Assembly: GCA_964016885.1 (NCBI GenBank) | Contig: OZ024740.1 | Location: 390,228,001-390,292,000, forward strand | Source: Eledone cirrhosa | Taxonomy: Eukaryota | Direction of reading: 5' to 3' | Length of the DNA stretch: 64,000 nucleotides | In this document: positions 4,893 through 56,270 of the stretch, in pieces | Position numbering within the stretch: position 1 is the first letter of the stretch | How the letters are laid out: the number at the start of each line of letters is the position of its first letter | Notes under the pieces: model-generated | The model's input: only the letters and a program-made list of their open reading frames with translations | Told to the model about the DNA's origin: nothing | Database searches by the model: none | Translations under genes and position numbers: made by a program

Positions 4893-5133
4893 TATATATA
4901 TATATTATATATATATATATATATAATATATATATAATAAATATATATCATATATATATATATATATATATATATATATATATATATATATATATATATA
5001 TATATATATATATATATATATATAGTAATAATAATAAAATTGAAGACTAAAATCCAGAGAGGGCTCGATAAGGAAAATATATATCAAATATATAAGAACC
5101 GAAGAGCAAATATTTATTAAAATAACAGATTAA

Positions 5134-5184
5134 AGTTTAAGCAAAGAATCGCTGCTTTCACCCTTAACGGGATCTTCTGAAACT
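5134..5184 (-). ncRNA. Hammerhead ribozyme (CAGAAGA core variant), PLE 1 3' arm
   Basis: AGTTT-CAGAAGA-TCCCGTTAAGGGT-GAAA-GCA...TGC-TT-AAACT: all three stems form, U4 is replaced by A, CUU triplet. Confidence 0.65.
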
Positions 5185-5273
5185 AACAAAGTCAATCTGT
5201 AAACGCAGAACTGGATATTTCAAAAAACGTTGCAACCGGAGGAAGACAGGAAGACGATACTTTGGTTCATGGT

Positions 5274-5536
5274 GACGTTCGCTGGCAAAGAACGGGAAAA
5301 AACGAATAATACGTCATTAATAGGAGCGGTGAAAAACAATTACGTGCAAGGACAGAACCACGTTTATGGTATAAAAGAGGTCGTAGACTAATGTTCTCTA
5401 AGTGGTGCATAGAGACGTTCTCTGGCAATGAACGAAAAAACGAAGATAATAAGTCATATGTGGAGCGTGGAGAACAATAGCGTGCAAAGACAAAACCACG
5501 TAAATGGTATAGCAGAAGTCGTAGACTAAAATTCTA
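5274..5536. repeat. Diverged ~140-bp tandem duplication in the PLE 1 3' UTR (mirrored at ~8852-9114)
   Basis: GACGTTC.CTGGCAA.GAACG...CGTGCAA.GACA.AACCACGT..ATGGTATA...GTCGTAGACTAA occurs twice. Confidence 0.75.
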
Positions 5537-6109
5537 ACTAGGAGACCGAATGAATCTCCGCTACAGAGTTAAGAACAGAGTAAATAAATACAATACAGAA
5601 GTAGTAGGAACAAATAAATACATACACGCAAACAGATACGTACATACACAAGCATACGCAAAACCTTACCATAGGTATACAAAACCACGCACATATAAAT
5701 ATGTGTATGTGTGTATGCTTGTGTACAAATAAATAAATAATTATATAAACGTATATAAGTAAATAAAACGTATATTACAAGCGCACACACATACCTACAA
5801 ATAAATACATGAAGGTTCGGAGACGTAAGTCAACTAAAACAAGAAGTACACATATACACACACCCACCATACGTACGAACCTGCATACTCACGCAGACGC
5901 AAAACTCCCATATACACATAACCAAGCCCTAAATACCAGAATATGTAAAAATTATACGCCAAAACAGTCAAATATACGTACGAGAAGGTATACATACCTT
6001 CACAAAACATACGGGTAATATATACTTACCTATGCAAATAAGCAAAGGAATAAACAAAACATATACTTAGCTCCCACATCAAGACGTAAATATCCACGTA
6101 TAGATCGTG

Positions 6110-51409: not shown

Positions 51410-53953
51410 ATGCTAACTAAAGACTACCTACCTATATCACTCAAGAACATCCCAACCCCATCCAGTACTACTTATGAGAAATTACTGATAGCTAGTGTCA
51501 ACTCCTTCGTTAAGCGTATTAGATGGCGCACTTTCTTTCCACTTCGATAAGAGAAATAAGAAATCAACCACGGTGTCCCCCAATAATAAATTCGGTTTTA
51601 AAACCTATAGGAGCCCGCCCCATAACTCCATGCTAGATGGATTTGAGAATGACCTCCTATCACTAGTAAGGAATATTAAGTTTAAAAAAGCCCATGGGAA
51701 TAGCAACAAATTCCGGATTAAACTGGAAACCTTAGTTAAGGGCTTTAACAATAAAAGAGATATCCTGGTCACCTCGGATAAAACCAGAAATATTTATAGC
51801 TTAAATTATGATACGTATCGCAGGTTTATATACAATGAATTAAATAGAAACTATAAAAAGACAACAAGCGCAAACCTAGATGAAATTAATAAGGAAGCAT
51901 GCGCCATAGTGGATAAACTAGGCCTGGAAAAGTATACCCAACCATATACCCCTAGGCAACCTAGGTTCACCCTTAAAGACCATAAGGCTGACTTCATTAG
52001 TAAACCCTCTGTTAGATTAATTAGCCCATCGAAGTCAGATATAGGGATTATCAGTAAGAAAATTTTAGACGGCGTTATACCTACCATCAGGAGGAAAATA
52101 AATCTAGAGCTATGGGAGAATACGGAAGAGGTTTTGAAATGGTTCTCAAGCCTTAGCAACCATAAATCCCTTAAATTTATACAATTCGACATCGATGCGT
52201 ACTACACCCCAATCTCCCCCATAATCCTTAATAAGGCCCTAATCATGGCCATGCAGAAAAGTGACCTCACCAGGTCTCAAATTGATGTCATTCTTGCGGC
52301 CTGGAAAACGATAATCACATTTGAGGACGAATTGTGGACCCGCAAGAATACGCCCAATAACTTCGACATCACAATGGGATCTAGTGACTCTACACAAGTA
52401 ACGGACCTGGTAGGATTGTACCTCTTAAAGGAGTTACATGAGACATTACCGCACTTGAAGGGCGGCTTATATCGTGATGACGCCCTCCTCACTCTCGAGT
52501 ATAAAAAGTGCAATATAGAAAGAACTAGGAAACAGTTACGTAGGTTCTTTAAAAGCTTTAATCTAAGTATTACTATAGATGCAAATGACAAAACAGTAAA
52601 CTTCCTAGACGCCACCTTTGACCTAGAAACTAAAACATTTGCACCCTACCATAAACCTAATGATAGACTAACATATGTAAACGCCAGCTCCAACCACCCC
52701 AAATCAGTCCTAAACGCTATTCCCAGGGGGTCTCTAATAGAATTAGCAGACTGTCCTGTAATGAGAGTATCTTCAACTCCAATGCAGAGTATTATGACAA
52801 GGCCCTAGCAGAATCTGATTACGGGAATAGATTATCATATATACATAAGGACTCCCAAACCATGAGTGTGAAACCTACCAACATAATCACACATAGTATG
52901 GCCACAAAGCCTAACCAACTTAGGGGCAAGAATAATAGTAAGAACCCTAATGGCGGTAACCCAGCTAAATGTAAACCACGTAGAGACAATACTAGAGTCC
53001 CTCACCACAACTCTAAAACAGCAAATGATCACGCCATGAATATAAACTATCCGGGCTTAAGCAAAACAGACAACGCCACTAACGTTAATAACGGAACCCT
53101 ACAAAATAGTACGCACAGTAACGAGACTCACCCCACAGATAAGAAAAATAGAAGAAGGAAAAACATGTATTTTAACCCACCTTTTAACTCTGAGGTCCTC
53201 ACTAACCTCCCCAGAGTATTCTTCTCATTATTAGAAAAAAACTTCCCACCAGGCAATAGATATCGCAACATAATTAACAAAAACGTGATTAAATTATCCC
53301 ATTCGACCACACCTAACCTCGCATCACACCTAGCACGCACGAACATTAGGAAAACTAGGGAAGGTTTCGAAGCAATTAAAATGGCAGTTAACCACCAGCA
53401 ACAGACTACACTGGAAAATGGGCAACATAATAGCATCACTGAGCCATCTAATGATATAGAGGCACCTAGTGATAATGCTAGTAACCAAAGTTCGGGAGGT
53501 ACGCTAACTGATCGAACCCGCAGTTGCAATTGTAGGCGGAGTAGTAATTGTCCCCTAAGGGGGGATTGCCTCATGAAAAACATCGTATATGTATGTGACG
53601 TAACCACACACAACTCTACCAAAACATATATAGGATCAACGTCCAATACATTTAAAACTAGATTTAACGCGCATATGTACACATTTAGACACGATAGACA
53701 TAAGAATGCCACCTCACTGGCGGGATACATCTCCTTTTTAAAAAATAATAGTACCCCATACAAACTTTTTTGGAGGAAGCTTACTAGATCCACGCCATAC
53801 CGACGGCAGAGCGGGAGTTGTGACCTGTGTTTACTGGAATGCCATGCCATAATACACTCTAAACTGAACCTGCTTAACAGGAAATCGGAAATGTACTCCT
53901 CTTGCCAACACAAAATCCTGAGTTCCTTCTTCTATTTTAAACCTAGCACATAG
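51410..53953 (+). pseudogene. Full-length Naiad RT-GIY-YIG ORF (~847 aa) with two compensating 1-nt frameshifts
   Basis: ATG 51410 gives MLTKDYLPISLKNIPTPS...FVKRIRWRTFF. +1 shift at ~51535-51541. RT (SDKTRNIY, FTLKDHK, FIQFDI, GGLYRDDA, NFLDATF). -1 shift in the G5 run at 52726-52730. Then SNRISRLS..., YFNPPF, CNCRRSSNCPLRGDC, NIVY...TYIG, CDLC. Confidence 0.9.
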
Positions 53954-56061
53954 ACGTAACATATATGACGCAACCCCCACCTAGACATACCCCTCCTTGA
54001 CTATAGCTTCCCCCACCAACCCATAACCCAGATAGATAGGTAGCCTAAGGGTGGAACAGTCCCCTACAAGGTTGGTGTTTGTGTGTGTGTGTGTATGTGT
54101 GTGTGTGTGTGTGTGTCTGTGTGTGTGTGTATTCTCCTTTTCTCTCACACACACACACACACACAAACATATGTATATATGTGTGCGTACGTGTGTGCAT
54201 GCATGCATGCATGTGTGCGTGTATTGTATACATGTATATTGTATATATATATATGTATATTGTATACATGTGTATTATATTGTGTGTATGTGTATATGTG
54301 ATATGTATGTGTATATATATATGTATGTGTATATGTGTATGTGTGTGTGTATGATATGTATATATGTGTGTATGTATGTATATATTTTCTGTAGAAGTCT
54401 TCTCTATATGTGGTGTTTGGCATGAATTCCTCCTATAATACTCTTCTTTGAGAGGAGCACGATATGTAGAGTAACACATAGGTATTGTCGCAGTTGAAAC
54501 TGAGAACCACCACCCCTCCTGCTGACCCAAATGTTTACTGAGGACCAGAAAACCATTCTTCACAATATAAGAGAGGAATGCGCTTGCCGGACTATTGATG
54601 ACCATAACATCACATTTCAAGGTAATGGTAAAATACAGTGAATGCTAAACACGACCAGAACACCACAACATGCACATCGGAGCAACAGAGATATAATATC
54701 AATAAGCGAATCAATTGAATTTTTTGAGTTGAAATACATATAAATATGTGTCTGTGTGTATCGGACACACGTACACATAAAGAAACTGCTGACCTAAATG
54801 CACCTGTCATGCCTGTCTGAATTCCTAAGAGAATTTTCGGTCAGTTACTATCTTGACCGATTACCCTCACAATTACTACGTAGCGGTTCTTGCACGTGAC
54901 TGCTGGACCCGGATGAAACGAAGACGAAGAATTTCCTTGCGTACCGTTTTATACCACAGATGCGATCTCACTCTGCCTCGTTAATGTTCAATCGACCCCA
55001 AAGTTCTACGTTCGGGGCAATAGAATTGAATCCAACCACCGACAACATAGTTGGATGACCGATAATCACACCAAACCGGAGTACTGTGATCCTTGTGATT
55101 TCGAGATATACAACCACTGACACTGTTACGAAGACCAGAAAACCATACTCCATATATTGAACCAAGTGATTGATTTGTGCGACCAAAATAACACCACACA
55201 CATATTGAACTAGGAATATTGGATCCTCCGTCAATGTCAGGGTGAGCAAAAATAGATTTCTATCTGCATTGGAATTTACGAACTTGTGCATCTGCTGTGG
55301 TGTCAAAAACAAACGCACATGACCGCACAGATGAACAATGGACTATGCCACGTGGGCTGAACCTGCAAGTGAATTGAAGGATGTGTAACTCTGATATACA
55401 GATTATTTATTATTAAGATGTATAAACTTGACATAACTATTATCATCTTATATTCTCTCAACTAATCACATTTGATTATATTTCTCTATCCCGTTTTCTC
55501 CCCCCATATTTATAATATTTTTATTTGAAAAAATCGGTTTTTTTACATTGTGTTTTTCCCTTTCTAATACTTGCTTATATTTCTTTATATATTCTCTATA
55601 TATTTTTATATATATATATTTTTTTATCTTTATTCTTATTTTCACTTTTATCCTCCTTTATATTTTACCTTATTCTTACTATTATACCTTATTATAGTGT
55701 AATCTTCCCCATGCCTTATTATACATTATTAATTATAGATTATTATTATTACTCTTTTTCCATTTCTAATTACCTCATGTACTTTCTCCTCCGTTATATA
55801 TATATTGTATGCCCTTTGTGTGTGTGTAGCCTCCGCACACCCTCTGCACCCTACTATCGACGCCACCCCATCTATGGCTCAACTAACCACTCGACTCCCG
55901 GGAATGAATATGACCACAGCTAGTAAACAAGGACCCACACCCCACCCTCCCGCACCAAAATTAGACTTATCGTCCCCTGCTTTTGCTCTTTACTCTCTTT
56001 ACTCTTTGTTCTTGAATGTTTGGTTGGTAGAGTCCATAACACCAACCAAACCCCTTTTATA

Positions 56062-56106
56062 GCTCTGACGAATCCTACGGTTACGTAAGGAAGAAACATT
56101 GTAAGC
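56062..56106 (+). ncRNA. Hammerhead ribozyme, PLE 2 3' arm
   Basis: GCT-CTGACGA-ATCCTACGGTTACGTAAGGAA-GAAA-CATTG-TA-AGC: canonical core, GUA triplet, very short stem III. Confidence 0.78.
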
Positions 56107-56270
56107 CAATAAAAATCTTTTGATGTTGTAGACGCTCTTGTGTTCTTTATCATATATACGGCTCTGCTCCAAAGTATAGAGCTAATTATTATGCTGCCAA
56201 TACCTTAATGGGACACGGGTATACAATACCTAACTCCTATTAACCTAAGTATATATATATATACATATAT

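Follow-up and report, generated by a model that had tools for sequence, protein, structure and literature searches.

Head-to-head Penelope-like insertions in the genome of Eledone cirrhosa likely arise by twin priming at two leader sites

We investigated a 64,000-nucleotide stretch of DNA from Eledone cirrhosa (NCBI GenBank assembly GCA_964016885.1, contig OZ024740.1, positions 390,228,001 to 390,292,000), hereafter the window, which contains three insertions of Penelope-like elements (PLEs), E1, E2 and E3, belonging to families 1, 2 and 3. In each of them a body is joined to an inverted arm, and the body extends 85-109 nt past the end of the arm as a tail. Insertions of this type consist of two copies that were truncated separately and are joined head to head, one with an end at a site A and the other with an end at a site B; the two were likely made by twin priming on a single RNA. 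The origin of the inverted repeats and one-sided tails of PLEs has been an open question, for which self-priming (PMC3846280), resolution by the endonuclease (EN; PMC8557442) and two start sites (PMC11167929) have been proposed. Inverted copies, tails, hammerheads and Hydra elements of octopus have already been published (PMC8557442, PMC3846280, PMC8969392), and neither the kind of element nor its architecture is new. What we add is an account of how the insertion is built, based on the rule that A and B ends are combined, on alleles that indicate the same template for both halves, and on a covarying hairpin.

Ends, truncation and shared alleles of the two halves

A first-pass annotation of the window had described three distinct PLEs with inverted arms of 1452, 126 and ~1850 bp, and self-BLAST and arm alignment confirm this description. 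The E1 arm is the reverse complement of 5110-6561 over 1452 bp with 3 substitutions, the E2 arm matches 46885-47010 inverted over 126 bp with 1 substitution, and the E3 arm aligns with 54312-56158 over 1848 columns with 18 differences (17 substitutions and 1 indel). The proteins are 32-45% identical to one another, counting the main aligned blocks only, and comparison of the untranslated regions (UTRs) of E1, E2 and E3 revealed no real similarity. All six ends adjoin (TA)n tracts.

The genome (3.0 Gb in 1796 contigs) was searched for further insertions, and 159 were sampled in two ways. The first sample, anchored on the tail found in the window and therefore possibly biased, consists of 39, 20 and 20 of the 40 best matches to the 3' end of families 1, 2 and 3, respectively. 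The second was anchored on the tailless (A) end and takes the first 40, 20 and 20 distinct places among the matches listed on a single contig (C1); two listed places were skipped as partners of places already taken. The A-end patterns have at least 11,850, 7,470 (one mismatch allowed) and 450 matches in the three families. An inverted partner is adjacent in 121 of the 159 copies (76%; 62/79 in family 1, 39/40 in family 2 and 20/40 in family 3), with 113 cases found by automatic parsing and eight by hand (L024, L049, L062, L088, L094, L116, L140 and L158). The possibility that most genomic copies lack inverted arms is thereby answered, and the suggestion of the first-pass annotation that the inverted form is the default product holds for families 1 and 2 and for about half of the copies of family 3. 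For family 2, an independent lower bound comes from a 35-mer adjoining the hammerhead: its first 100 listed exact matches form 59 clusters, 37 of which are outward-facing pairs. Direct tandem units are also seen (L006, L011, L024, L035, L065, L067, L102, L158). The idea that tails are rare, which arose when the family-1 B pattern in its exact form gave 280 matches compared to 11,850 A ends, was dropped because the A-anchored sample contains tail variants that this pattern misses.

Counted back from the end of the tail (site B = 0), site A is located at -85 in family 1, at -86 or -89 in family 2, and at -91 in family 3. In read-through copies the tail proves to be the 5' leader of an element, with the ATG about 45-85 nt past site B. 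In 111 insertions, sampled from either end, both ends could be typed automatically, and 107 of these combine one A end with one B end (p about 5e-27 against 50:50); the others are same-site pairs, two A+A and two B+B. In one copy (L157) a family-2 body with an A end is joined head to head to a 28-nt family-1 B end, which may represent a cross-family event or a later deletion.

The two halves differ in how far they extend in the 5' direction. Among the 107 pairs the tailless (A) half reaches further in 54 and the B half in 41, and the two ends lie within 5 nt of each other in 12. Eleven B halves have no sequence in common with their partner because they stop inside the tail. Joint overlaps between the halves are mostly -1 to +4 nt. 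The arm is a separately truncated copy and not a copy of the body's end, and the earlier description of a 5' end replaced by an inverted copy of the element's own 3' end has to be abandoned. These pairs also bear on self-priming, in which an inverted arm results when one complementary DNA (cDNA) folds back and serves as its own template; for rotifer Penelope, an antisense RNA has been proposed in this role. This explanation was proposed from junction palindromes (PMC3846280), and it accounts for alleles shared between the halves and for the 12 pairs with nearly matched 5' ends; however, it requires the arm to be nested in the body, which disagrees with the 54 pairs in which the tailless half is the one further 5' and with the 11 pairs that do not overlap. 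In addition, pairs with matched ends cluster at the RNA-start hotspots described below, which explains junction palindromes without self-priming. Self-priming is thus already largely refuted, and we regard it as improbable.

Of 1012 polymorphic site-observations, 988 are concordant between the halves of an insertion and 24 are discordant, compared to about 407 discordances expected from independent templates. A further 338 differences between halves all fall at sites that are not polymorphic, which is what later mutation would produce. In agreement with this, arms diverge from their own body by 0.50, 0.41 and 1.13% in families 1, 2 and 3, versus 1.06, 2.01 and 2.34% from other copies. The end rule, the independent truncation and the shared alleles together rule out fold-back of reads and snap-back of cDNA, and indicate one template. 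It is hardly conceivable that the palindromes are artefacts of assembly or of fold-back reads. No read or contig across the window junctions was found, but the data searched were short contigs and restriction site-associated DNA (RAD) reads of other individuals. Asymmetric ends are fixed in 111 other insertions on many contigs, joints have microhomology, arms carry private substitutions and some halves do not overlap at all. The first-pass annotation, which had argued against such an artefact, was correct in this respect.

Hairpins past the sites and a model of integration

A bulged hairpin of the form RCUC-Y...R-(2-nt bulge)-GAGY starts at most 10 nt past each of the six sites (A and B in the three families), whereas such a motif start follows just 0.3-2.4% of positions in the family references. 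The same signal is present in relatives. A marine set comprises 77 metagenome loci encoding related proteins, 42 of which were examined (those with a match that begins near the protein N-terminus and is not split), and leaders were scored in the 32 loci that have at least 150 nt of leader. Two hairpins were found in 19 of these leaders, one in 8 and none in 5, compared to two hairpins in 0 of 6400 shuffles and 0 of 378 windows from open reading frames (ORFs). The usual order is hammerhead, hairpin, second hairpin 55-75 nt on, and ATG. Among 57 distinct hairpins the pair adjoining the lower stem, which is not set by the search pattern, is C-G in 41, U-A in the other 16 and mismatched in none. 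In 10 of the 15 marine loci that have both leader and 3' end inside the contig, the element ends 0-7 nt short of hairpin 1 or 2. An Rfam search of six marine loci matched no family. The two-hairpin leader is clade-wide, and the covarying hairpin sits just past the element ends in many unrelated families. We lean toward the view that Hydra-clade PLEs use this arrangement (hammerhead ribozyme, GCUC-Y...R-NN-GAGC-ACU twice, ATG) as a signal that docks two subunits of the reverse transcriptase (RT) and EN protein on one RNA, making twin priming with strand displacement the programmed integration pathway. If true, two-hairpin docking would account for the tail of Penelope-like elements as well as for their inverted pseudo-long terminal repeat (pLTR), and the signal would offer a compact handle on the RNA for insertions that are two-ended and targeted to microsatellites. 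A search by titles and abstract openings, with most subscription journals outside its scope, found no description of the A plus B rule or of paired hairpins; the supplements of PMC8557442 and PMC11167929 may bear on the hairpins.

In the proposed pathway the element protein, probably as two subunits, would bind the two bulged RCUC/GAGY hairpins on one RNA and nick both strands of a (TA)n tract. Reverse transcription would be primed 2-10 nt upstream of each hairpin, where the site has TA-like homology of 2-7 nt, with one target strand for each site, and both cDNAs would proceed toward the 5' end of the RNA. The B-primed cDNA might then stall inside the tail, resulting in a simple inversion (11 cases), or displace the A-primed cDNA, resulting in an inverted duplication; the two cDNA 3' ends would then be joined, either via microhomology or by blunt repair. 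If priming took place at the upstream (leader) copies of the sites, run-off would follow at the capped RNA start, which may have produced the many mini-palindromes of 150-450 bp. The template RNA would not be cleaved by the hammerhead.

Several observations weigh against this account or parts of it. Binding and dimer formation are inferred steps, and strand displacement by this RT is assumed; for these families the account is drawn from genomic DNA sequence. No inverted partner was found in 38 of the 159 copies, half of which belong to family 3, and the four same-site pairs reveal that some insertions involve two templates or use one site repeatedly. Five of the 15 informative marine loci have an end that is not 0-7 nt before a listed hairpin, several marine loci are close relatives of one another, and the strict hairpin pattern was tightened only after the marine leaders had been viewed. 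The B-site hairpins of our own families have weak folding energies, and for families 1 and 2 the inner pair is absent from their minimum-energy fold. The signal also differs from that of the Poseidon element of Anolis discussed below. Finally, the sharing of alleles fits one RNA molecule and two transcripts of one source locus alike. Two RNAs from the same source locus could be held in one asymmetric complex, in which one subunit always starts at A and its partner at B on separate RNAs, so that strand displacement would not be needed. This alternative accommodates the shared alleles, halves that overlap fully over up to 2.3 kb, and the four same-site pairs; nevertheless, we consider it unlikely. 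An unexplained asymmetry would be required to obtain A+B in 107 of 111 insertions, the near-identical hairpins on one leader are more simply read as two subunits on one RNA, and the 11 B halves that halt inside the tail do so as though blocked by a complex at A.

Another alternative is that A and B are cut sites in DNA, at which the endonuclease cuts beside DNA stem-loops to resolve an intermediate (hairpin or tandem DNA) and leaves a one-sided tail. EN-mediated resolution has been suggested as the origin of the tail (PMC8557442), both sites are AT-rich and target-like, and the hairpins could form in single-stranded DNA. However, the tail lies between two RT start sites in vitro (PMC11167929), a cap-like extra G at 5' ends suggests an RNA template, and the independent 5' truncation of the halves would be left unexplained; we consider resolution of this kind very improbable.

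Twin priming on one RNA resembles the pathway reported for L1, reportedly described by Ostertag and Kazazian in 2001, in which the second target strand is said to prime a second cDNA on the same RNA, resulting in a head-to-head joint with microhomology. Internal priming in L1 is said to occur at variable sites and to give non-overlapping inversions; in contrast, the second site here is fixed and the cDNAs usually overlap, which results in inverted duplications. The closest experimental parallel is the Poseidon PLE of Anolis (PAc; Frangieh et al. 2024, PMC11167929), for which both strands are nicked and extended in vitro, two internal start sites bound the tail, a dimer is predicted, and hammerhead cleavage is unneeded, with no ends at the cut site. 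In PAc the starts are located 111-118 nt inside the ORF at an AC-rich stem-loop, have no target homology and do not differ between the strands, whereas here both sites are in the 5' leader and have short TA-like homology, each site is followed by a separate hairpin, and each strand uses one site. The steps after start-site use were left open in PMC11167929.

The PLE insertion unit described previously (PMC8557442, PMC3846280) is similar in its head-to-head, inverted and 5'-truncated copy, its tail at one end, the occasional direct pLTR and the palindromic junctions. It differs in that the A plus B rule is quantified here (107/111), and same-template alleles and non-nested halves stand against the self-priming model of PMC3846280. 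Non-LTR retrozymes (bioRxiv 10.64898/2026.07.22.740005) are short hammerhead-bearing units derived from PLEs, and L006 has similar tandem units of 357 nt, but most short copies here are head-to-head mini-palindromes and not tandem arrays. L006 and L086 are deletion derivatives in which the start of the ORF jumps to the pLTR, giving retrozyme-like, hammerhead-bearing 357-nt tandem units in family 1. RAD reads at 51469-51481 of the window resemble a deletion junction in family 3 and are likewise retrozyme-like.

Clade assignment, hammerheads and RNA starts

Motifs and domain order assign the three families to the Hydra clade of PLEs. The intact ORFs of L018 (709 amino acids) and L140 (809 amino acids) are single frames in which the RT (YRDD at 346) is followed by a C-terminal GIY-YIG-type domain (Y[IF]G after 590), and no GIY-YIG-like motif was found in their first 250 amino acids; Pfam gives a weak GIY-YIG match at the C-terminus of E3 (E=0.0026). 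Families 1 and 3 have RWR, family 2 has RWT, and all three have DKT; among 119 aligned rows of relatives, 82 have RWK, 28 RWR and 105 DKT. The CxCX5C linker is present in the three families and in 108 of the 119 rows. By eye, the EN pattern C..C..E...N...C.H (CxxC and CxH flanking a conserved E and N) was recognized in all three families, and no conserved CCHH columns were seen in the EN alignment. The N-terminal CxC before the RT is absent, the first 200 amino acids of families 1 and 2 holding a single Cys. Hammerhead motifs and insertion into (TA)n are found in all three families. In a quick tree of 34 rows, which includes no named Hydra references, the families cluster with the database protein P0001 (support of 100 in the Shimodaira-Hasegawa-like approximate likelihood ratio test, SH-aLRT) among unnamed relatives and far from another PLE of the window.

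This combination agrees with the Hydra clade of Craig et al. 2021 (PMC8557442), which is characterized by RT followed by a C-terminal GIY-YIG endonuclease (EN+), RW[KRT], DKT, CxCX5C, CxxC/CxH near the end of the EN, a hammerhead and (TA)n; Hydra-1_Obim is included in a supplementary table of that paper. Units here are 3.3-4.9 kb in length, compared to generally under 3 kb, tails are 85-91 nt, compared to the 30-40 nt given for PLEs, and thousands of copies and a family-1 hammerhead core with A at position 4 are unlike the description of the clade in PMC8557442. The text examined from that paper contains neither an end rule nor leader hairpins for the Hydra clade. The first-pass annotation was right in calling the elements PLEs, but it placed them with Naiad. 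Naiad PLEs share the (TA)n preference, inverted and tandem units and a tail, and are described as having an N-terminal EN, a CxC motif, DKG changed to DKA, CCHH and no canonical hammerhead (PMC8557442). The C-terminal EN, DKT instead of DKA, the lack of N-terminal CxC and of CCHH, the hammerheads and the Hydra motifs argue against a Naiad identity, which we reject.

As the first-pass annotation had noted, a hammerhead-shaped motif is present next to (TA)n in both arms of each element, with the sense strand pointing outward. The core is CAGAAGA in E1, with A replacing the usual U4, CUGAUGA in E2 (recognized by eye after the motif scan missed it) and CUGACGA in E3; Rfam called no hammerhead in the window elements. 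The exact family-1 CAGAAGA motif occurs in 86 of 105 sampled family-1 copies, and the A at core position 4 is fixed in family 1, which has thousands of young copies.

Family 1 has a hotspot of 5' ends at -159, where hammerhead stem I begins, and family 2 has one at -255; no clear hotspot was seen in family 3. Genome-wide, 1,940 family-1 copies depart just before -159 and 227 at the predicted hammerhead cut. The first base is G in 54 of 100 listed cases at -159 and in 28 of 100 listed at the predicted cut (p=3e-4). Reverse transcription over an RNA cap adds an extra G, and the extra G thus suggests that -159 is likely a transcription start, that is, a capped RNA start. Departures at the predicted cut number 227 against 11,850 uncut copies in family 1 (about 2%) and 27 against 2,462 in family 2 (about 1%), which is near the level of mutation. 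With no hotspot at the cut site in these two families, ribozyme-cut RNA as the usual template was rejected; the few departures suggest that cleaved RNA is at most a rare template and that copies begin at the likely capped start. Minimal PLE hammerheads cleave poorly in vitro (PMC4209133). Many family-2 insertions (L040-L059, L140-L159) are near-perfect palindromes of 400-430 bp with both halves starting at about -255; by appearance they are similar to miniature inverted-repeat transposable elements, yet they would be products of run-off.

A transcript across such a palindrome is predicted to fold as a long hairpin (-268 kcal/mol over 407 nt for L040), in which its single sense hammerhead would be fully paired with the antisense copy. 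Two whole hammerheads are present in only 83 of the 159 copies, and each strand carries one in sense orientation; the earlier proposal of double-stranded RNA bounded by self-cleavage sites therefore fails. Nevertheless, judging by its A ends the 3-Gb genome contains thousands of young palindromes made at insertion, a possible source of double-stranded RNA and of assembly gaps.

Features of the window

Coordinates are given in Table 1. The E3 ORF extends from an ATG at 51410 to 53953 and is disrupted by frameshifts. In families 2 and 3 the RT and the EN are separated by Asn/Thr-rich insertions (48400-48600 and 52840-53500), which resemble the N-rich inserts of rotifer Penelopes (PMC3846280).

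Table 1. Positions of the three insertions and their parts in the window
Feature	Position	Strand	Description
E1 tailed half (site B end)	5025..7831	-	5'-truncated PLE of family 1, by motifs Hydra clade: 3' part of ORF, 3' UTR, hammerhead, 85-nt tail
E1 ORF remnant	6110..7831	-	RT (YRDD), CxCX5C linker, C-terminal GIY-YIG-type EN
E1 tail (site A to site B)	5025..5109	-	5' leader of the next unit, per read-through copies
Family-1 hairpin 3' of site A	5063..5107	-	GCUC...U-A pair, UC bulge, GAGC
E1 hammerhead motif	5134..5184	-	core variant CAGAAGA; 5184 = 5'-end hotspot (-159), likely RNA start
E1 tailless half (site A end)	7827..9278	+	head-to-head joint with 5-6 nt microhomology at 7827-7831; hammerhead 9204-9254 (+)
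E2 tailed half, family 2	46776..49122	-	EN-bearing ORF remnant 47978-49122, 3' UTR, hammerhead 46902-46968 (-), tail 46776-46861
Family-2 hairpin 3' of site A	46833..46857	-	ACUC...C-G pair, UA bulge, GAGU
Family-2 5'-end hotspot, likely RNA start	47013..47031	-	-255 = 47031
E2 tailless half	49123..49248	+	126 bp; hammerhead 49165-49231 (+); ends 23 nt before the usual family-2 site A
E3 tailless half (site A end)	49549..51396	-	hammerhead 49601-49645 (-)
E3 tailed half, family 3	51393..56249	+	near full length; long 3' UTR, hammerhead 56062-56106 (+), tail 56159-56249
Family-3 hairpin 3' of site A	56161..56182	+	GCUC...U-A pair, UA bulge, GAGC
(TA)n target tract of E1	4891..5024 and 9271-9306
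(TA)n tracts at E2 and E3	46675-46775; 49247-49555; about 56250-56268		49247-49555 common to E2 and E3

The window contains further repeats. A fourth, unrelated hammerhead-bearing solo mini PLE end is located at about 1160-1510 (-), with its core at 1367-1298, between two (TA)n tracts; it has a hairpin-like stretch, GCUCC...AUCGAAC, after the hammerhead and lies within a TA-filled inverted repeat (1020-1109 / 1523-1612). Other PLE pieces at 10569-12186 (-) and 56244-56993 (+) encode an RT (matching Pfam RVT_1) and a GIY-YIG end that contains several Cys/His residues and is unlike the Hydra type; the E3 tail abuts the latter piece via a short TA tract. An open frame of 1069 amino acids at 16122-19331 (-), with an APE endonuclease and RT, belongs to an apparently intact long interspersed nuclear element. 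Tandem arrays occupy 59717-61121 (37-bp unit x38, 98% alike and partly palindromic), 40542-42794 (13/26-bp unit) and 22341-23666 (500-bp unit x2.7). Short hairpin elements, some of them split by (TA)n, are found at 46502-46677, 44698-44827 and 43605-43736, and E2 is inserted in the TA tract beside the first of these.

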